Shown piece after piece: positions 1 to 6,282 of a DNA stretch of 6,282 nt. The position numbers and the translations under genes are program-made. Each line of letters begins with the position of its first letter. Position 1 is the first letter of the stretch. The stretch comes from a virus. Location of the stretch: the IMG/VR virus record IMGVR_UViG_3300029780_000130, positions 1 through 6,282 of that record. One strand, given 5' to 3'. The notes under the pieces are model-generated. The model had not been told where the DNA came from. It saw nothing but the letters and a program-made list of their open reading frames with translations, and did not search any database.

Positions 1-80
1 GAGGACCAAACACTGAACGAACGTATAAACATGGGGCTTGAATTTGGAGAGAACATCGTTGAATTATTATTATCGCTAAG
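1..80. repeat. Terminal direct repeat, identical to 6203..6282. It is an artefact of linearising a circular 6202-nt genome, not a biological repeat.
   Basis: Read directly from the sequence: 1..80 (gaggaccaaacactgaacgaacgtataaacatggggcttgaatttggagagaacatcgttgaattattattatcgctaag) is identical to 6203..6282. Confidence 0.95.
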
Positions 81-174
81 AAAAAAGAGTGGCAAGAAAT
101 CGAAAACAGTAACAGATACATGGAAAGAAAAAGGTAGAAGTCATTCTGAAACATCATACGAAGAATATCATTAA
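1..174 (+). CDS. 3' end of the VP2 (minor capsid/DNA pilot) CDS, continuing around the circle from 5231..6202. 1..80 duplicates 6203..6282, 81..171 is unique C-terminal coding sequence, and the stop TAA is at 172..174.
   Basis: Frame 1 from position 1 is open (EDQTLNERINMGLEFGENIVELLLSLRKKSGKKSKTVTDTWKEKGRSHSETSYEEYH*). It is in phase with the ORF beginning at 5231. The stop lies 1 nt before the Rep ATG at 176. Confidence 0.8.
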   Translation, partial: EDQTLNERINMGLEFGENIVELLLSLRKKSGKKSKTVTDTWKEKGRSHSETSYEEYH

Positions 175-175
175 T

Positions 176-1273
176 ATGTGTTTATATCCTAAATTTATAA
201 AAAATCCGAAATATAAGCCTAACAAAAAAAATAAAGGCAAACCTCCTGTCTGCAAAGATAGGAGGTTGTATTACATTCCCACAAAGTGTGGATGTTGTAT
301 TGAGTGTCGTAAAGAAAAACAACGAGAATGGAGAGTGCGATTAGAAGAAGAGTTACGCTCGAATTTTGGGTATTTCACTACATTAACGGTAGCGCCAGAA
401 AGTATAAAAGAATTAGAAATAGATACGGGGCTAAAATGGAAAGAAAACCCAAACGAGATAGCAACAAGGGCATTAAGGTTATTTTTAGAACGAGCGAGAA
501 AAGATACTGGGAAAAGCATAAGACATTGGTGCGTTACAGAATTAGGAGAAGAGGGAGACAGGATTCACCTGCACGGAATATTCTTTGGACAAAAAAGCGC
601 AGAGCTTGTACGAAAACACTGGAAATACGGTTTTGTCTTTATAGGGCATACCTGTAATAGCAGAAGTGTAAATTACATGACAAAATACATGTTAAAGGTG
701 GATGTCAAACATAAAACATTCAAACAAATCGTATTAGCTAGTAAAGGAATAGGAAACGGGTATTTCGACAGGCTTGATTTCCTCTGGCAAAAACAAAATT
801 ACAAACAAATCAATGTAGCTACCTATACATTCCGGAATGGTACTAAAATGGCCATGCCAAAATACTATAAAAACAAGTTATTCACAGATAAAGAGCGTGA
901 AAAAATGTGGATAAATAACTTAAACAGGGGAATACTATGGATATTCGGAGAGAAAGTGAAAGCTGATGACTGGAAAACGATAGACAACCTCAGAACGTAC
1001 TGGCAGAAGTATGGACGTGATGTAATGGGCGATGACCCAATAGCATGGAATGCGATGAAAGAGAGGCGAAAGGAAGAGAAACAACGCAAAGCTATCGCAG
1101 AGGCTAAGAAATTAGCCGAAAAATTCGGCACGGAAATTCTAGCGGAAGCTCCGTTACAGGACGAATTTCCTATGCAACAGAATGACTGGGATGAAATTGT
1201 GTACAGGTATTGGGACGAAAATAAGGAATACATGATAGAAAGGCATTGTAGGGTGCTGGGCATTAGCGCGTAA
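176..1273 (+). CDS. Rolling-circle replication initiation protein of superfamily I (Microviridae VP4, phiX174 gpA-like), 365 aa.
   Basis: RCR motif I FTTLT (aa 67-71, nt 374..388). HUH motif IHLHGIFF (H131/H133, nt 566..574). A double catalytic tyrosine motif Y-MTK-Y-MLK (Y167/Y171, nt 674..688) closely matches phiX A FYVAKYVNK. The N-terminal Cys cluster C26..C38-G-C40-C41-x2-C44 is the kind of zinc-finger-like element seen in gokushovirus VP4, though that attribution is from memory and not certain. The C-terminus is K/E-rich. Confidence 0.9.
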   Translation: MCLYPKFIKNPKYKPNKKNKGKPPVCKDRRLYYIPTKCGCCIECRKEKQREWRVRLEEELRSNFGYFTTLTVAPESIKELEIDTGLKWKENPNEIATRALRLFLERARKDTGKSIRHWCVTELGEEGDRIHLHGIFFGQKSAELVRKHWKYGFVFIGHTCNSRSVNYMTKYMLKVDVKHKTFKQIVLASKGIGNGYFDRLDFLWQKQNYKQINVATYTFRNGTKMAMPKYYKNKLFTDKEREKMWINNLNRGILWIFGEKVKADDWKTIDNLRTYWQKYGRDVMGDDPIAWNAMKERRKEEKQRKAIAEAKKLAEKFGTEILAEAPLQDEFPMQQNDWDEIVYRYWDENKEYMIERHCRVLGISA

Positions 1274-1318
1274 GGTTCGTTTTGACACTACACCTATTGC
1301 GTATTCACGCAAAAGTGA

Positions 1319-1329
1319 GTTTTCAAAAC
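1319..1329. promoter_or_regulatory. Perfect 11-bp palindrome GTTTTCAAAAC in the intergenic region downstream of Rep. It is a candidate protein-binding site.
   Basis: Read from the sequence. It is its own reverse complement around a central C. Confidence 0.3.
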
Positions 1330-1339
1330 GATTGTGCAG

Positions 1340-1530
1340 AAAGCCAGAATTAGCTGACCATCAGAATACTACCAGCGGCAGAATTAGCGGCACAGATAGC
1401 TCGCTTCGCTCGGGGTGTTTAAGGCGGAAAGTCCTTCGTCCTTTCCTTGTCGCTTCGCTCCTTTTTGTACGCTCACTGACGCGGAGCTTGTTCGCTGTAA
1501 GCCTTGCAGGCTTGCGCGCAATACTATCAG
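1340..1530. other. GC-rich (~55% GC against a ~37% background) non-coding island containing three pairs of short direct repeats: CAGAATTAGC at 1345-1354 and 1379-1388; AGCGGCA at 1374-1380 and 1386-1392; TCGCTTCGCTC at 1401-1411 and 1450-1460. A 6-bp-stem hairpin lies at 1499-1513.
   Basis: The compositional shift is visible by eye. Both strands are open here (track ORFs 1332..1562 + and 1361..1555 -), as expected for GC-rich sequence lacking AT-rich stop codons. The + strand ORF starts with TTG. No convincing protein-like sequence is present. Confidence 0.6.
1499..1513. other. Small hairpin AAGCCT-tgc-AGGCTT with a 6-bp stem and 3-nt loop, followed by GCGCGC.
   Basis: Inverted repeat read from the sequence. 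Confidence 0.35.
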
Positions 1531-1546
1531 CGAGTGTTAAAGACGG

Positions 1547-1589
1547 TATTTGCATATGTTAAAATGGGATATTTGCTTGCAAAATGGGA
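1547..1589 (+). promoter_or_regulatory. Two tandem imperfect direct repeats (TATTTGCatatgttAAAATGGGA and TATTTGCttgcAAAATGGGA) 44-86 nt upstream of the first small ORF. They are candidate operator/iteron or promoter elements. The first unit contains a dif XerD-arm-like motif ATATGTTAAAAT (1554-1565).
   Basis: Repeats read from the sequence. AAAATGGGAT recurs at 1561-1570 and 1581-1590 with a 20-bp period. A Bacteroidetes-type -7-like element TAtcTTTa lies at 1600-1607 and a TTTG at 1572-1575, but the 24-nt spacing is longer than canonical, so the promoter call is weak. Confidence 0.35.
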
Positions 1590-1632
1590 TTTTTAACAGT
1601 ATCTTTACACTGTAATCAAAAAAAGCAAGGTC

Positions 1633-1950
1633 ATGAAAAAAGAATTTAACGTAATGCTCATAGCGTTAGAGCAAAAAGAGAACTATTTAGATATTCGCTT
1701 TTTCAAAACAATGGATAGCGCATATAAGTTCGGAAAAGAATTAAAGGACTATAATGAGAATTTTACAGTATTGGGGATATTTAATGTGAAAAAAAGTAGC
1801 AATCATAGCTGGAAAGTGTTAATTTATGATAAAATATTAAATATAAAACACCAGGTATTTGTAAATTCAAAAAAAGAGTGTAAAATTGTAACAAGAATAT
1901 TTCTTGAATATGAAAATAAATACAACATAACCTTTAAAAAGAGATATTAA
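1633..1950 (+). CDS. Hypothetical protein, 105 aa, lysine-rich and basic.
   Basis: ATG start in an A-rich context. Same strand as all core genes. The stop is 1 nt before the next ORF's ATG. No recognisable motif. Confidence 0.5.
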   Translation: MKKEFNVMLIALEQKENYLDIRFFKTMDSAYKFGKELKDYNENFTVLGIFNVKKSSNHSWKVLIYDKILNIKHQVFVNSKKECKIVTRIFLEYENKYNITFKKRY

Positions 1951-1951
1951 T

Positions 1952-2170
1952 ATGAAAGAAGAAATCAAACAATTCTTAAAAGAAAATTGGAAAACAGTAG
2001 CAGGTATCATAGGTGCGGCTGTATTATTAGCAATATCCTATATATTTGAAAGCTGTGGAAGTACCTGGCGAATATCAGGAAATACGGTAAACGTGAACAA
2101 CAAATGCAAAAATGACTCAATTACACATCACAATGATACCATCGATTACGAAGTACGGCAAATTCCGTAA
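1952..2170 (+). CDS. Small membrane protein, 72 aa. It has a charged N-terminus (MKEEIKQFLKENWK), one predicted TM helix (TVAGIIGAAVLLAISYIF) and a polar ~40-aa C-terminal tail.
   Basis: The hydrophobic stretch is obvious in the translation. The ORF is tightly packed between neighbours (ATG at 1952 directly after the upstream stop at 1948-1950). Confidence 0.5.
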   Translation: MKEEIKQFLKENWKTVAGIIGAAVLLAISYIFESCGSTWRISGNTVNVNNKCKNDSITHHNDTIDYEVRQIP

Positions 2171-2390
2171 AAAAGAATGGGTAAAGTCAGCCAAGATACC
2201 CTTCGAAGCATTCAGTGAGGGCGTGTATTGCCTTATGTGGGAAGGGTTTGATTACGACACAGGAAATTGCTTAAAGGGTTTCCGCGTAGTTATGAATTGC
2301 TGTTTATTCAAAGAAGCAGAACGCCTTGAAGACGAGTTACGTAAAAACAAAATTATATTAACAAAAATTGAAGCAATTAAAAACATTTAA
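2112..2390 (+). CDS. Hypothetical protein, 92 aa, with four Cys (C40, C53, C62, C63). It overlaps the 3' end of the preceding ORF by 59 nt in another frame. An alternative start at M8 (2133) is possible.
   Basis: ATG-initiated ORF on the coding strand. Its stop at 2388-2390 is followed 2 nt later by the next ATG. The overlap makes the exact start uncertain. Confidence 0.4.
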   Translation: MTQLHITMIPSITKYGKFRKKEWVKSAKIPFEAFSEGVYCLMWEGFDYDTGNCLKGFRVVMNCCLFKEAERLEDELRKNKIILTKIEAIKNI

Positions 2391-2392
2391 TC

Positions 2393-2647
2393 ATGAATTT
2401 CGAAGAATCATTAAAATGGGCAATCAGCCAAGATGTGGTAAAAATATCTTGCGTTAAAGATGGAGAAGATGACAAATACATTTTCACAGTAGGACAGTAT
2501 AGTGTATCTCCGCTTATATTTGACAGTCAAGAAGAAGCAGAACAGTATCTCAGAGACAATGTCAAACTAACAAATTTAGATTTCGCAATTATCGGAGCGA
2601 TGTGTCAAAGGCTTAACGAAATCAATAATGAATCACCTAAAAAATAA
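2393..2647 (+). CDS. Hypothetical protein, 84 aa, acidic.
   Basis: ATG-initiated, same strand. It ends 6 nt before the VP1 ATG. No recognisable motif. Confidence 0.5.
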   Translation: MNFEESLKWAISQDVVKISCVKDGEDDKYIFTVGQYSVSPLIFDSQEEAEQYLRDNVKLTNLDFAIIGAMCQRLNEINNESPKK

Positions 2648-2653
2648 AAAACA

Positions 2654-4735
2654 ATGAAAGTAAGTATTGGAAAGAACACCCTCGGCGGGGGTAAAAAAAT
2701 GACGACACGGTTAAATAACTATAACCGTAGTACACACGACCTTAGCCATGTCTGCAGAACATCGGCTGCTGTAGGAACTCTAATTCCCACATTCTATCAA
2801 TTAGTATTACCAGGAGATACATTTCCTATACAAACTAGGTGTCACACTCTAACTCACCCAACTATTGGTCCATTATTCGGCAGTTTTAAACAGCAAAACG
2901 ACTTCTTTTTCTGTCCTATCAGGCTGTATAATGCTATGCTACATAATAATGCATTAAATATAGGATTAAATATAAAACAAGTAAAATTTCCTATATATCC
3001 AATACCTTATGGACAATACACCAATAAAGAAAAAATGAAAGGAAGTAATGACTCTCTACTCAATGAAGTTAATCCGAGCTCACTAGTCGCGTATACAGGA
3101 GTAAGAGCCCTATCAACCTTAGAAGGTTATGGTAGAACACAAAAAAATTACAACTGCATTAAATTAATGATGTATTACGACATCTTTAAAAATTATTATG
3201 CAAACAAACAAGAAAAAAATTTTTATGTAATATCTGGAAATACCTATTACACGTACAAACAAATAGCTAGTTCACTTAAAAATGGTGAGGTATGTTTAAC
3301 AATTGCAAACAGTGCCAATTCTCAAAACTCATGGAAAATTGTTGCCACAGGTCTACCGAATACAAAAGGGAGCACAGGTGATTATCCCAAAACTAACACT
3401 AACCACCAGGCATGGGTATTAGCAATAAATCCATACACCCAAGACTCGAAAATAGGACAAGTTGAAGTAAAAATAAATTTTAATACAGGGTGGTTAACCG
3501 AAACAGGAGGCAATGTAGGAGGTTTAAAAACTATTAATATTTATGGAACAATAAACAACCTTGTAGAAAATAAAATTCTAACAAATATTACAGGAAAAGT
3601 TGAAGCTCCTATTGAAGGAATAGAATATTACAAAATAAATGTAACTACATTCCTACCAAAAGAACAAACCCTTAAAACATACTTTTACGTGAACGAACCA
3701 ACTATGGCGGTAAGCGTAGAAGCAAGATATAATAGCTATCGATTAGATACAATTGACGATATGAGAGAGAGTGTACTCACAGCAGGAAAGACTCAATACA
3801 TATCACAAGAACCGTTCATAATTGATATCTTCAAACCTATACAAACAGAAAATGGTCTAGCACCAAGTTGTTCACAGCCATTGGTAGGTCTTGCACTTAA
3901 AACATATCAAAGCGATATTAATACCAACTGGGTCAACACCGAATGGATAGATGGGGAGACAGGTATTAATGCCATTACAGCTATCGATACAAGTTCCGGA
4001 AGCTTTACACTCGATACCTTAAATCTTGCGAAAAAAGTATATACCATGCTTAACAGAATTGCCGTAAGCGATGGAAGTTATAATGCATGGATACAAACAG
4101 TATACACAAGTGGAGGGTTAAATCATATAGAAACACCTATATATCTCGGAGGTAGCTCCCTCGAAATTGAATTTCAAGAAGTTGTAAACAACAGCGGAAG
4201 CGAAGAACAGCCATTAGGAACATTAGCCGGTAGAGGTATTGCAAGTAATCACAAGGGAGGAAATATTATATTCAAAGCAGATGAACCCGGATACATATTT
4301 TGTATCACCTCTCTCACTCCAAGAGTAGATTATTTTCAAGGTAACGAATGGGACAATTATTTATTGACACTAGACGATTTGCATAAACCACAACTTGACG
4401 GTATAGGCTTTCAAGACAGATTGTACCGAAGCGTAAATGCAAATATACCTTACGCAATGTCGAGTAAATCAATCGGTAAACAACCTGCATGGATTGAATA
4501 CATGACAAACGTTAATAAAACATACGGAAATTTCGCACTTATCGAAAACGAAGGTTGGATGTGTTTAAATAGAATATTCGGAGAAATAGATACCTATACA
4601 ACTTATGTATTTCCACACCTCTACAACAACATCTTCGCCGATACAGATATAACTGCCCAAAATTTTTGGATTCAAATAGCGTTTAATACAAAACCAAGAC
4701 GCGTTATGTCAGCAAAAGTTATTCCTAACATTTAA
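2654..4735 (+). CDS. Major capsid protein (Microviridae VP1, phiX174 F-like), 693 aa. An alternative start at M16 (nt 2699) would give an N-terminus MTTRLNNYNRSTHDLSH more typical of VP1.
   Basis: The N-terminal signature NRSTHDLSH...VGTLIPTFYQLVLPGDTF matches the conserved gokushovirus/alpavirus VP1 N-terminus (R-x-x-FDLSH ... LIP ... EVLPGDTF). Its size is in the gokushovirus/Alpavirinae VP1 range. It is the largest ORF in the genome. Confidence 0.93.
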   Translation: MKVSIGKNTLGGGKKMTTRLNNYNRSTHDLSHVCRTSAAVGTLIPTFYQLVLPGDTFPIQTRCHTLTHPTIGPLFGSFKQQNDFFFCPIRLYNAMLHNNALNIGLNIKQVKFPIYPIPYGQYTNKEKMKGSNDSLLNEVNPSSLVAYTGVRALSTLEGYGRTQKNYNCIKLMMYYDIFKNYYANKQEKNFYVISGNTYYTYKQIASSLKNGEVCLTIANSANSQNSWKIVATGLPNTKGSTGDYPKTNTNHQAWVLAINPYTQDSKIGQVEVKINFNTGWLTETGGNVGGLKTINIYGTINNLVENKILTNITGKVEAPIEGIEYYKINVTTFLPKEQTLKTYFYVNEPTMAVSVEARYNSYRLDTIDDMRESVLTAGKTQYISQEPFIIDIFKPIQTENGLAPSCSQPLVGLALKTYQSDINTNWVNTEWIDGETGINAITAIDTSSGSFTLDTLNLAKKVYTMLNRIAVSDGSYNAWIQTVYTSGGLNHIETPIYLGGSSLEIEFQEVVNNSGSEEQPLGTLAGRGIASNHKGGNIIFKADEPGYIFCITSLTPRVDYFQGNEWDNYLLTLDDLHKPQLDGIGFQDRLYRSVNANIPYAMSSKSIGKQPAWIEYMTNVNKTYGNFALIENEGWMCLNRIFGEIDTYTTYVFPHLYNNIFADTDITAQNFWIQIAFNTKPRRVMSAKVIPNI

Positions 4736-4746
4736 AACTTATAATC

Positions 4747-5082
4747 ATGATTAAACCAAAATTATATTCAAGACCGCCGATAACAAACTACGAATACCAA
4801 GAAGGAGAAAGTATTGAAAATAAAGTTCGTAGAATTACCGAAAACAACGAACCTATCACAGACGGGGCACCAATCATCTACACAAACAGAGATGACGGAG
4901 TATTACCGGCTTACAACATCAGAACTGACCGTTGGGAAATAGCACAACAGGCAATGGAAGCAGTCAACCAGGCTAACCTAGCCAAATCAAAAAACTACGG
5001 AAAAATAGAACAACAGGAACAGAATGCCCTCGAATCAAAGGAGATTGGAGATACTCCTTCGCAACAGGATTCGGTGGGATAA
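4747..5082 (+). CDS. Hypothetical acidic protein, 111 aa, located between VP1 and VP2. It may be a scaffolding (VP3-like) analogue, but there is no sequence support for that.
   Basis: ATG 11 nt after the VP1 stop, on the same strand. Its Q/E-rich C-terminal half is followed by a hairpin plus T-run. Confidence 0.55.
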   Translation: MIKPKLYSRPPITNYEYQEGESIENKVRRITENNEPITDGAPIIYTNRDDGVLPAYNIRTDRWEIAQQAMEAVNQANLAKSKNYGKIEQQEQNALESKEIGDTPSQQDSVG

Positions 5083-5101
5083 ACCACACATCTAAAAGGC
5101 T

Positions 5102-5138
5102 GGGAGTCAGAGAGTTATTCTCTACTCCCTCCATTTTT
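5102..5138 (+). terminator. Candidate rho-independent terminator. It is an imperfect ~11-bp stem (GGGAGTcAGAGAG / TCTCTACTCCC, with one bulge) with a TTAT loop, followed by TTTTT at 5134-5138.
   Basis: The inverted repeat and downstream T5 run are read from the sequence, 20 nt after the stop of the 111-aa ORF. Confidence 0.4.
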
Positions 5139-5185
5139 CACAAAATGGTACGCATGTAGCATATATTATCTAGTAATAGGTGTAC

Positions 5186-5205
5186 CCCTTGTGAAATTAC
5201 AAGGG
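5186..5205. promoter_or_regulatory. Perfect hairpin CCCTTGT-gaaatt-ACAAGGG (7-bp stem, 6-nt loop) 26 nt upstream of the VP2 start codon.
   Basis: Read from the sequence. It lies in the 148-nt VP1-module/VP2 intergenic region, which also holds an AT-rich stretch (catgtagcatatattatctagtaatagg). Confidence 0.4.
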
Positions 5206-5230
5206 CGAAAAATTAAACAAACAAAACAAT

Positions 5231-6282
5231 ATGGGATTCGGAAAATTATTTACAGAAAATTTAGCCGGTTCGGGAGCCAGCAGTTTAACAGGATTGATAT
5301 CCGGTGGTATAAGCCAAGCATTAGGATTAAGTTGGTCACCAAGAAAAGCCATGGAAGAACAATGGAAATACAACAAAAACATCATGGCACTACAAAATCA
5401 ATACCAACAGCAAGCAGCTGCGCAATCACAAAAATATGCAAAAGAATATTGGGATTACACGAATGCAGAAAATCAAGTTGCACATTTAAAAAATGCTGGC
5501 TTAAACATAGGGTTAATGTACGGTCAAAGTGGAGCAGGAGGTATGGGAGCGAGTGGAGGGGCTCATCAAGCAGCACCAGAACAACCACAAAGTAACCCTG
5601 TTGCTATGGCTTTGCAAACGCAACAAATCGAACAACAAAGGAGAATGAATGACGCACAAATAGCACTAGCAGAAGCACAAGCGAGAAAAGCGGACGAGGA
5701 AGCGAAAAAAATCGGAGGTGTTGATATTGAAGAAGCTTATAAACGTATAGAGGAAATGAACGCAAAAATCAACGACCTTATTGCCAGCAAAAATTATAAA
5801 GAAGCTGAAACAGAGCTTTCTAAGGCAAAAAAGGCAACAGAAGAAACGATACAACGGCTCAACGAGGCGAATGAAGCACTATCAAGAGCAGACATAAGCA
5901 AAGCATTTGCAATAGCTACGCATTATTCCGAAGCAGCTCACAAAATGTATTGGGAATACCAAAGAGAAAAACTCGGATACGAATACGACAAAGAAACATT
6001 GCAGGATAGAATTGACGCAGCATATTATATGAATTGTCAGATAATTGCGTTAACGGCAAAATACAAAAAAGACGTCGAAGTCGGGGACGCACAAATAAAG
6101 CAACTAGTAGCAGCGGCAAAAGAATTGAATGCATTGGCGGATAAACACGATTGGGACAAAGAAACGTATCGCAAAGAAGTAGAGAAAATGATTGAGCGTT
6201 GGGAGGACCAAACACTGAACGAACGTATAAACATGGGGCTTGAATTTGGAGAGAACATCGTTGAATTATTATTATCGCTAAG
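5231..6282 (+). CDS. Minor capsid / DNA pilot protein (Microviridae VP2, phiX174 H-like). It is incomplete in the window because it runs off the 3' end and finishes at 172..174 after the circular wrap. The full length is ~381 aa.
   Basis: An open frame from ATG 5231 to the window end with no stop, so it is absent from the ORF track. The N-terminus is Gly/Ser-rich (MGFGKLFTENLAGSGASSLTGLISGGISQALG...GQSGAGGMGASGGAHQAAP). A long Q/A/E/K-rich predicted coiled-coil follows. Both features are typical of VP2/H pilot proteins. A possible alternative GTG start lies at 5180. Confidence 0.8.
   Translation, partial: MGFGKLFTENLAGSGASSLTGLISGGISQALGLSWSPRKAMEEQWKYNKNIMALQNQYQQQAAAQSQKYAKEYWDYTNAENQVAHLKNAGLNIGLMYGQSGAGGMGASGGAHQAAPEQPQSNPVAMALQTQQIEQQRRMNDAQIALAEAQARKADEEAKKIGGVDIEEAYKRIEEMNAKINDLIASKNYKEAETELSKAKKATEETIQRLNEANEALSRADISKAFAIATHYSEAAHKMYWEYQREKLGYEYDKETLQDRIDAAYYMNCQIIALTAKYKKDVEVGDAQIKQLVAAAKELNALADKHDWDKETYRKEVEKMIERWEDQTLNERINMGLEFGENIVELLLSL
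6203..6282. repeat. Second copy of the 80-nt terminal overlap (circular genome wrap-around).
   Basis: Identical to 1..80. The VP2 reading frame is continuous across this junction (6203 and 1 are both codon first positions). Confidence 0.95.

Follow-up and report, generated by a model that had tools for sequence, protein, structure and literature searches.

In the IMG/VR record IMGVR_UViG_3300029780_000130 we identified a small gene, ORF72 (open reading frame of 72 codons), that may encode a lysis-related small envelope protein and serve as the lysis effector of this phage. Resting on sequence and its comparison, this assignment is tentative, and we put its chances a little short of even. The DNA analyzed (the window; positions 1 to 6,282 of the record) contains the whole of a circular microvirus genome, 6202 nt in length; its 6282 bases include an 80-nt assembly overlap, bases 1–80 being identical to bases 6203–6282. 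Microviruses are among the most abundant phages of the human gut, and only phiX174-type lysis is understood (PMC3394797). For the Bacteroidales-infecting lineage the lysis mechanism is undescribed (PMC3394797, PMC9239249), in agreement with the original prediction for this locus, and the literature searched names no lysis gene for it except an occasional M15 peptidase (including PMC3394797, PMC3091885 and PMC9239249). Functional work on a microvirus lipoprotein, or on a single-gene lysis protein (Sgl) with a lipobox, was likewise not found in that literature.

The gene and the parts of its product, of 72 amino acids (aa), are as follows.

1952–2170, + strand: ORF72, small protein of 72 aa, predicted to be envelope-targeted, ATG to TAA
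1952–1993, + strand: codons 1–14, MKEEIKQFLKENWK, conserved amphipathic N-terminal helix (n-region) with the K-x-N-W-K motif
1994–2047, + strand: codons 15–32, TVAGIIGAAVLLAISYIF, hydrophobic helix; Kyte-Doolittle maximum over 19 residues (KD19) 1.94
2045–2056, + strand: lipobox-like motif F32-E33-S34-C35
2054–2110, + strand: codons 35–53, CGSTWRISGNTVNVNNKCK, most constrained part of the tail, predicted periplasmic; ratio of nonsynonymous to synonymous divergence (dN/dS) 0.049
2111–2170, + strand: codons 54–72 plus stop, NDSITHHNDTIDYEVRQIP, C-terminal tail, overlapping the next gene, ORF92, from 2112

ORF72 is a real, strongly conserved gene under purifying selection. Translation returned the 72-aa product with the hydrophobic helix at residues 15–32 from which the original prediction had started. 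All other + strand products stay at or below a KD19 of 1.02, so that ORF72 encodes the sole strongly hydrophobic one. The further claim that this is the only membrane-type protein of the genome therefore stands by hydropathy and falls short in one respect: the Gly-rich N-terminus of the pilot protein VP2, weakly hydrophobic at a KD19 of 0.97, has been treated as a predicted transmembrane (TM) domain (PMC3394797, PMC3091885). When the genome was shuffled with dinucleotides preserved, a + strand ORF of at least 60 aa with such a hydrophobic segment appeared in 0 of 300 shuffles. These shuffles were used in place of the minus strand, which was rejected as a null control because it is T-rich and yields hydrophobic ORFs by composition.

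Database searches yielded 573 homologs of ORF72, the best 120 of them at 81–92% identity, and many were located on contigs of about 6.1–6.4 kb. The homolog was intact in every genome of the clade that was fetched, including those retrieved via the major capsid protein VP1 alone. Pairwise comparison of 23 aligned genomes gave a dN/dS of 0.18 overall, 0.135 for codons 1–34 and 0.049 for codons 35–53, with a synonymous divergence (pS) of 0.44–0.60 in these two segments. From position ~2107–2112 on, variable sites move from codon position 3 of ORF72 to its position 1, which within the overlap is codon position 3 of ORF92; over codons 54–72, the ORF72 frame showed a pS of 0.015 and a nonsynonymous value (pN) of 0.119. 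In the overlap, which takes up the last 19 codons of ORF72, the constraint sits on ORF92 and not on ORF72. From the codon-phase switch and the pS and pN values we conclude that ORF92 starts at 2112 and that the functional core of ORF72 comprises residues 1–53.

In an alignment of 24 sequences, M1, E4, I5, L9, E11, N12, W13 and K14 were invariant. Cys52, the second Cys within codons 35–53, is nearly invariant. AlphaFold2, run with the family alignment, predicted helices at residues 2–11 and 13–34 (pLDDT 78–89, the latter helix 85–89) and left residues 36–72 disordered with no confident fold. Residues 15–32 could be either the h-region of a signal peptide or a membrane anchor. The charge bias of the window protein is weak (+4/-3 before the helix, +1/-1 after it); the N-terminal flanks of relatives are strongly basic, as in Dulem virus 224 and in the F3 family (MENAKSNKERK...), which supports an N-in topology. 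This charge pattern of the relatives and the lipobox-like motif predict for ORF72 an N-in/C-out Sec-type signal or anchor protein, with a periplasmic tail either way.

Directly after the helix, Cys35 is present in all 121 sequences compared. At -1 stands Ser (75) or Gly (46), with Ala also occurring in distant relatives; at -2 Glu (106), Gly (9), Asp (3), Asn (2) or Lys (1); and at -3 Phe (66), Ile (32), Leu (14), Met (6) or Val (3). An invariant Cys following a hydrophobic region, with a small residue at -1, is a criterion for lipoproteins, and this arrangement was found throughout, including all distant relatives. Some of the latter carry the textbook lipoboxes VLSAC, IIGC or CAGC (also TGSC), and the homolog in Dulem virus 224, a 99-aa ORF, has IQSC. 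Cys52 is lost in some sequences and Cys35 in none, which points to a role of Cys35 beyond a Cys35-Cys52 disulfide. Judged by its residues, the motif has the pattern of a lipoprotein signal peptide. We see about even odds for cleavage and lipidation at Cys35, the alternative being an uncleaved N-in signal anchor. A rule of the PROSITE PS51257 type, which we re-implemented as a regular expression rather than using the official tool, asks for uncharged residues at -10..-5, [LIVMFWSTAG]x2, [LIVMFYSTAGCQ] at -2 and [AGS]-C, with the Cys at position <=35 and K/R within the first 7 residues. It was passed by 10 of the 121 close relatives, by the distant relatives P0126, P0127, P0128 and L032, and by 22 of 34 syntenic ORFs of the other families described below.

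When 1.84 billion cluster representatives were searched exhaustively with a profile, no more than eight additional true ORF72 clusters turned up. Distant relatives keep the basic or amphipathic N-terminus, the hydrophobic helix and [G/A/S]-C-G-S-[T/A]-W-x-[ILV]-x-[GD]-N, but little else; C-G-S-x-W...N is kept down to 30–45% identity. We then surveyed 94 related genomes, with VP1 38–100% identical, for ORFs combining a basic N-terminus, an uncharged hydrophobic stretch and [GAS]-Cys. Exactly one matching coding-strand ORF, of 59–99 aa, was present in 62 of the 94; in the GenBank relatives whose annotation was checked, it precedes VP1 by one or two genes. The original prediction had proposed to look for a conserved small TM ORF at the same position in relatives, and these 62 genomes carry an analogous one; the lack of such an ORF, named there as refuting, was not observed. 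The syntenic ORFs belong to several sequence families, with canonical lipoboxes such as TVQSC, TLGGC, FLQAC and VITSC and mature parts of ~35–38 residues rich in N/Q/S/T/K. In GenBank they are labeled hypothetical protein or left unannotated. ORF72 would then be its clade's version of a gene composed of signal helix, Cys and polar tail, which fills this slot before VP1 in most gut microviruses of the Alpavirinae-like kind.

One genome of the survey (L102, 2684–2896) has a 70-aa ORF just downstream of VP1 that overlaps the start of the next ORF. Its TM helix is followed by H-R-C-ATVNIQQQNEK, a tail like the CVISLNIQKNN of lipobox ORFs, and it may be a non-lipidated variant, Arg at -1 being unfit for a lipobox. 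Complementarity with the M15 peptidase was considered and proved uninformative: the Bacteroides fragilis isolate phiHBP1 has the peptidase but belongs to another clade.

Some of the syntenic ORFs match a known bacterial peptide family. The type represented by L055 matched PF20096 (DUF6486) with an E-value of 7.5e-15 (54.7 bits) and NF033879 ('smalltalk protein') with 1.2e-13 (50.6 bits), both models covering residues 1–30 only, that is, N-terminus, helix and Cys. Two other syntenic families gave weak matches to smalltalk/DUF6486 (E 0.014 and 0.032). For the ORF72 family itself, hhalign with broad profiles (A6 vs A7) gave 85% probability of a match to the DUF6486-type profile (E 6e-6, 35 columns), placing W13 on the conserved DUF6486-type Trp and Cys35 on the Cys, over a helix-rich segment of the kind in which membrane helices inflate scores and false positives are common; narrower profiles gave 15%. 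We also built a smalltalk hidden Markov model (HMM) from short non-microviral peptides only and ran it against 3851 six-frame microvirus ORFs. Its top 15 matches were all small ORFs of the syntenic type, and the F1b variant of the window's family reached an E-value of 0.16. Taken at this strength, it is probable but unproven that the ORF72 family is a remote homolog of DUF6486/smalltalk. No paper discussing the function of smalltalk/DUF6486 was found in the literature searched.

The genomic company of the short smalltalk peptides bears on a possible function. In two bacterial loci, found via the peptide, a smalltalk gene of 31–33 aa ends 12–62 nt upstream of an Amidase_2 gene (PF01510), whose 136-aa product lacks a signal peptide; one of these loci has SusC/SusD neighbors. 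In a set of 80 IMG/VR loci, selected because they contain a relative of the smalltalk-linked amidase, 10 of 10 HMM matches lay directly beside the amidase (nine upstream, one downstream) and none elsewhere, and other loci of this set had two-TM holin-like ORFs upstream of the amidase. Only the short smalltalk peptides showed this pairing. These have 0–4 residues after the Cys; some end at the Cys and some have none, so what the family has in common as a functional unit is the helix and not a mature lipopeptide. We infer a holin-like reading of the smalltalk-amidase context.

Further occurrences touch the same peptides. In Bacteroidales, a module of an HU-HIG gene, a smalltalk peptide (29–37 aa) and a signal-less Amidase_2 (136–147 aa) was seen at L104 1194–2480, at L105 203–726 and in L107–L180. 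The small amidase-bearing IMG/VR contigs were considered as microviruses and rejected, having no match to VP1, Rep or VP2. Microvirus mar60 (L010, MZ089806) contains at 5927–6004 an unannotated ORF of 25 codons, MKDWVKALLQAIAAAIGALLGGVSC, which stops at Cys and looks like the short smalltalk peptides of bacteria; it overlaps an annotated coding sequence in another frame. The GenBank third-party annotation record for P0205, a member of a sister family, carries the automated label 'SPP1 phage holin'.

The mechanism that we infer for ORF72, from membrane topology and lipid modification to smalltalk homology and the lysis role itself, would run as follows. The short amphipathic N-terminus would stay cytoplasmic while the ~20-residue helix inserts N-in into the inner membrane via Sec. 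The helix would end in the lipobox-like [FIL]-E-[SG]-Cys and leave the largely unstructured tail of ~38 residues on the periplasmic side. Late in infection the product would build up in the inner membrane and impair the envelope. We favor a holin-like step, in which damage by the helix would let a signal-less peptidoglycan amidase of the host, of the smalltalk-linked kind, reach the wall. Less favored is a step as in colicin release, in which a lipidated tail and a stable signal peptide would both damage the envelope. We counted for the lysis reading that ORF72 is the only strongly hydrophobic coding-strand product and that no muralytic gene exists elsewhere in the genome. The remaining small proteins, encoded by ORF105, ORF92 and ORF84, gave no membrane or secretion signal in a hydropathy scan, so none of them can act on the wall directly.

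Several observations weigh against this reading. The genome has no muralytic enzyme of its own: no window ORF matched a peptidase, amidase or holin domain in Pfam. The holin-like model would hence need a host enzyme, and the pairing with a signal-less Amidase_2 is absent from the window. The PS51257-type rule rejects the window protein (FESC) for its Glu at -2, which leaves lipidation uncertain. The helix bias of the hhalign score counts here as well; window ORF72 did not match PF20096 or NF033879 at E<=10, staying outside the curated cut-off, and with the smalltalk HMM it lay in the noise (E 18 against the 3851 ORFs). The smalltalk-amidase module stands near HU-like, primase-like and integrase-like genes, company in which it is not proven to be a phage lysis cassette. 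The match of ORF72 to the holin family phrog_689 is weak (E 0.007) and confined to residues 3–33. Homologous mature tails shared between the F2–F4 lipobox ORFs and ORF72 were sought and rejected (hhalign 0.3%), so the equivalence is positional and architectural, with homology not shown for the tails. Finally, about a third of the surveyed genomes have no detectable lipobox ORF. These are mostly shorter (5.0–5.5 kb); in several of them a short ORF with a single TM and no Cys stands instead, and a few show nothing recognizable.

Searches of ORF72 against family libraries did not place it otherwise. Pfam gave no match at E<=1, NCBIfam no relevant match, and PHROGs and PADLOC no meaningful family, with weak matches over the helical N-terminal part. 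A PDB sequence search returned noise only. With tblastn, ORF72 had no match in GenBank phages, and the homolog in Dulem virus 224 was found by reading ORFs. Among 185,579 species genomes there was no prophage with ORF72, only two spurious out-of-frame matches.

Doubtful, though the first alternative to be weighed, is a superinfection-exclusion or receptor-masking lipoprotein. The 38-residue peptide, lipidated at Cys35, would bind an envelope receptor from the periplasm, block re-infection and spare progeny from loss on debris and outer-membrane vesicles. The Llp and Cor proteins, Llp being that of phage T5, act in this way on FhuA. The small precursor, the lipobox-like Cys and the short mature peptide fit such a role, and the dN/dS of 0.049 on the mature core fits specific binding to a host protein. 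A surface-export signal has been published for Bacteroidota, consisting of acidic residues after the Cys; ORF72 has none there (CGSTWR...), and as a lipoprotein it would likely face the periplasm, which suits this explanation.

Against exclusion, the ORF72 variant does not follow the capsid type, contrary to what a receptor-specific blocker should show. Identities to the window within the clade were 41–93% for ORF72, 78–89% for Rep, 56–95% for ORF92, 73–96% for ORF111 and 50–88% for VP2; ORF72 is as conserved as Rep across the clade. VP1 identity is bimodal (59–63% or 79–92%), which suggests capsid-gene exchange by recombination, and it varies independently of the ORF72 variant: ORF72 stands at 72–93% where VP1 is at 59–63% or at 83–92%, and at 41–58% where VP1 is at 85–90%. 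Two genomes illustrate this, L015 with ORF72 at 88% and VP1 at 62%, and L044 with 41% and 90%. Across the loci L011–L032 and L044–L046, Rep, ORF72, ORF92 and ORF111 were mostly at ~75–95%. An ORF72 type that is uncoupled from the VP1 type fits a conserved host target and not a receptor-specific function. In addition, the short smalltalk relatives have nearly no mature part and are paired with amidase genes. Together with the capsid-type uncoupling, this linkage lets the context lean to lysis over superinfection exclusion. ORF72 matched no exclusion family in PHROGs, Pfam or PADLOC, and the lack of an ORF72 prophage among the 185,579 species genomes makes a role in protecting lysogens unlikely; T5, a lytic phage, also uses an exclusion lipoprotein. 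If exclusion is its role after all, ORF72 would offer a lead to the receptor of the phage.

Unlikely to a similar degree is a non-essential accessory membrane protein that tunes infection, be it burst size, membrane-associated replication or assembly, or envelope stress, with lysis done by some other factor. In phiX174, protein K is of this kind, so a small microvirus membrane protein need not be the lysis protein. The third of related genomes in which no lipobox ORF is detected counts for this reading, as do the three further small ORFs in the same region (ORF105, ORF92 and ORF84). However, ORF72 is intact in 100% of the clade genomes and conserved like Rep, the truly variable slot is that of ORF105, which is swapped in relatives, and the other small ORFs carry no membrane or secretion signal.

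We regard as rather unlikely a variant of lysis in which gut Alpavirinae-like microviruses contribute the trigger only, a smalltalk-like membrane peptide fused to a short periplasmic tail that hijacks the smalltalk-partnered, signal-less amidase of the Bacteroidales host or another of its autolysins. If true, this would be a single-gene strategy aimed elsewhere than at the Sgl targets known so far (MraY, MurA and MurJ), and it would provide the first function for the widespread Bacteroidales smalltalk/DUF6486-amidase modules.

Least likely, at a low probability, is an amurin of the phiX174 E type, whose uncleaved helix would inhibit a peptidoglycan precursor step (MraY, MurJ or similar) and cause septal bursting: one small protein with a TM segment, in a microvirus without muralytic enzyme, would fit, and a helix and N-terminal flank conserved while synonymous sites vary (pS 0.44, dN/dS 0.135) are as expected if the helix contacts a target, but ORF72 shows no similarity to E or any Sgl family (PHROGs, Pfam, PDB), its predicted topology is the reverse of the one in E, which has an N-out TM domain and a cytoplasmic tail, its helix is without proline, its gene is free-standing, and its invariant [GS]-Cys and constrained core CGSTW...N have no counterpart in E.

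Returning to the favored assignment as lysis effector, ORF72 offers several mutational targets, namely Cys35, Glu33, the Trp motif and the tail. If the assignment holds, single-gene lysis would gain a new type of protein, Bacteroidales possibly a new antibacterial target, and the smalltalk/DUF6486-amidase modules, which are multicopy in Bacteroidales genomes, their first functional handle. Its Cys35 motif, the overlap with ORF92 and the circular 6202-nt genome had been overlooked in the original prediction.

All genes of the window lie on the + strand, and the remaining features of the genome are these.

176–1273, + strand: Rep/VP4 (PF23343, phrog_942)
1274–1632: GC-rich non-coding stretch
1633–1950, + strand: ORF105
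2112–2390, + strand: ORF92, in the +1 frame relative to ORF72, 59-nt overlap
2393–2647, + strand: ORF84
2654–4735, + strand: VP1, major capsid protein (PF02305)
4747–5082, + strand: ORF111
spanning the window end, + strand: VP2, pilot protein

The order VP1, small ORF, VP2, VP4 is that of Alpavirinae (PMC3394797). The closest GenBank genomes are the fecal microviruses Dulem virus 224 (VP1 59% identical) and Microvirus mar60. Identical and near-identical contigs came from human gut metagenomes, and identical genomes also occur as contigs of 6321–6329 nt with k-mer overlaps. The stop codon of ORF105 and the start codon of ORF72 are separated by 1 nt (TAA-T-ATG). ORF105 has no homolog in other genomes of the clade, where an unrelated ORF of ~104 aa fills the slot; this is a swappable accessory position just upstream of the strictly conserved ORF72. 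ORF92 and ORF84, both conserved, small and soluble, had no family match in library scans, and a weak relative of ORF84 (37% identity) lies directly upstream of VP1 in mar60.

The stretch 1274–1632 has a G+C content of 0.42–0.47, compared with 0.28–0.37 in its flanks. As single-stranded DNA it folds slightly more stably than shuffled sequences (z -2.2), it has no match in Rfam, and it could be an origin or packaging region. A 64-aa minus-strand ORF placed there by gene callers is probably spurious.

One contig (L001, ERZ651911 NODE_3637, 14 kb) was examined as a pointer to Barnesiella as the host and set aside as a weak hint only. At 4556–4650, chromosomal DNA of Barnesiella intestinihominis passes into microvirus DNA at the 5' end of VP1, which the junction truncates. 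The sulfatase encoded there matches WP_419501398.1 exactly; the bacterial gene next to it is cut short as well (609 aa vs 691 aa in the cluster), followed by 1.3 phage genome lengths. This contig is probably a chimeric assembly, the alternative being an illegitimate integration. Another contig, L002, is a tandem assembly of 1.8 copies.

Compared with named systems, ORF72 comes close to smalltalk/DUF6486, whose peptides have a basic or K-x-x-W-K N-terminus and a helix of ~20 residues ending in [TQNGS]-[SAG]-Cys. The smalltalk peptides are from Bacteroidales and their viruses, and their SusC/D neighbors point to a Bacteroidota host range, as here. ORF72 differs in its Glu at -2, its constrained 38-residue tail and its second Cys, whereas the bacterial peptides end 0–4 residues after the Cys and always stand beside Amidase_2, a gene that the window genome does not have. 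Membership in this uncharacterized family would not name a mechanism.

With the colicin lysis proteins, or bacteriocin release proteins (PF02402, Lysis_col), ORF72 shares a precursor of ~50–70 aa with a mature part of ~30–38 aa, an unusually conserved signal-peptide region and the setting of a tiny replicon that encodes no enzyme for the purpose and still has to release macromolecules from a Gram-negative cell. The colicin lysis proteins bring about quasi-lysis jointly through their mature lipopeptide and their stable signal peptide. ORF72 differs from them in having no Pfam match at E<=1 and an atypical lipobox in place of the canonical L-x-x-C, and their hosts are enterobacteria rather than Bacteroidales.

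The resemblance to phiX174 E on which the original prediction drew extends to a small microvirus protein with an N-proximal hydrophobic helix, a polar tail and no endolysin, and did not hold beyond that. E, an MraY inhibitor, is defined by an essential proline in its TM helix, Pro21, and by overprinting within the external scaffold gene, and its C-terminal domain is dispensable. The ORF72 helix TVAGIIGAAVLLAISYIF contains no proline; the gene is not embedded in another, only its last 59 nt overlapping ORF92; it has the lipobox-like Cys and a constrained tail; and it gave no Pfam match at E<=1 to Microvir_lysis and only noise among PDB chains.

One-TM holins are likewise small proteins with one TM helix and charged flanks, and the related short peptides lie directly upstream of a signal-less amidase; ORF72 differs in that its genome has no cognate endolysin or muralytic gene and that the phrog_689 match is driven by the helix. 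With T5 Llp/Cor it shares a small lipoprotein-like phage precursor with a short mature part under selection, but there is no sequence similarity, ORF72 and VP1 types assort independently, and the helix part of ORF72 is conserved across a wider family. The o-spanin Rz1 is comparable as a small lipoprotein-like product with a periplasmic Cys and a gene that partially overlaps its neighbor. ORF72 differs from it in lacking an i-spanin partner, there being no other + strand product above a KD19 of 1.02, no type II membrane protein with a coiled coil in the window and no endolysin or holin; its tail is not Pro-rich, and no spanin match was found in Pfam or PHROGs. On the criteria tested for each, ORF72 thus falls outside E, holins, spanins, Llp/Cor and the colicin lysis proteins. 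The literature searched contains no description of a similar protein in microviruses, and in its form ORF72 resembles the known small envelope effectors of phages.

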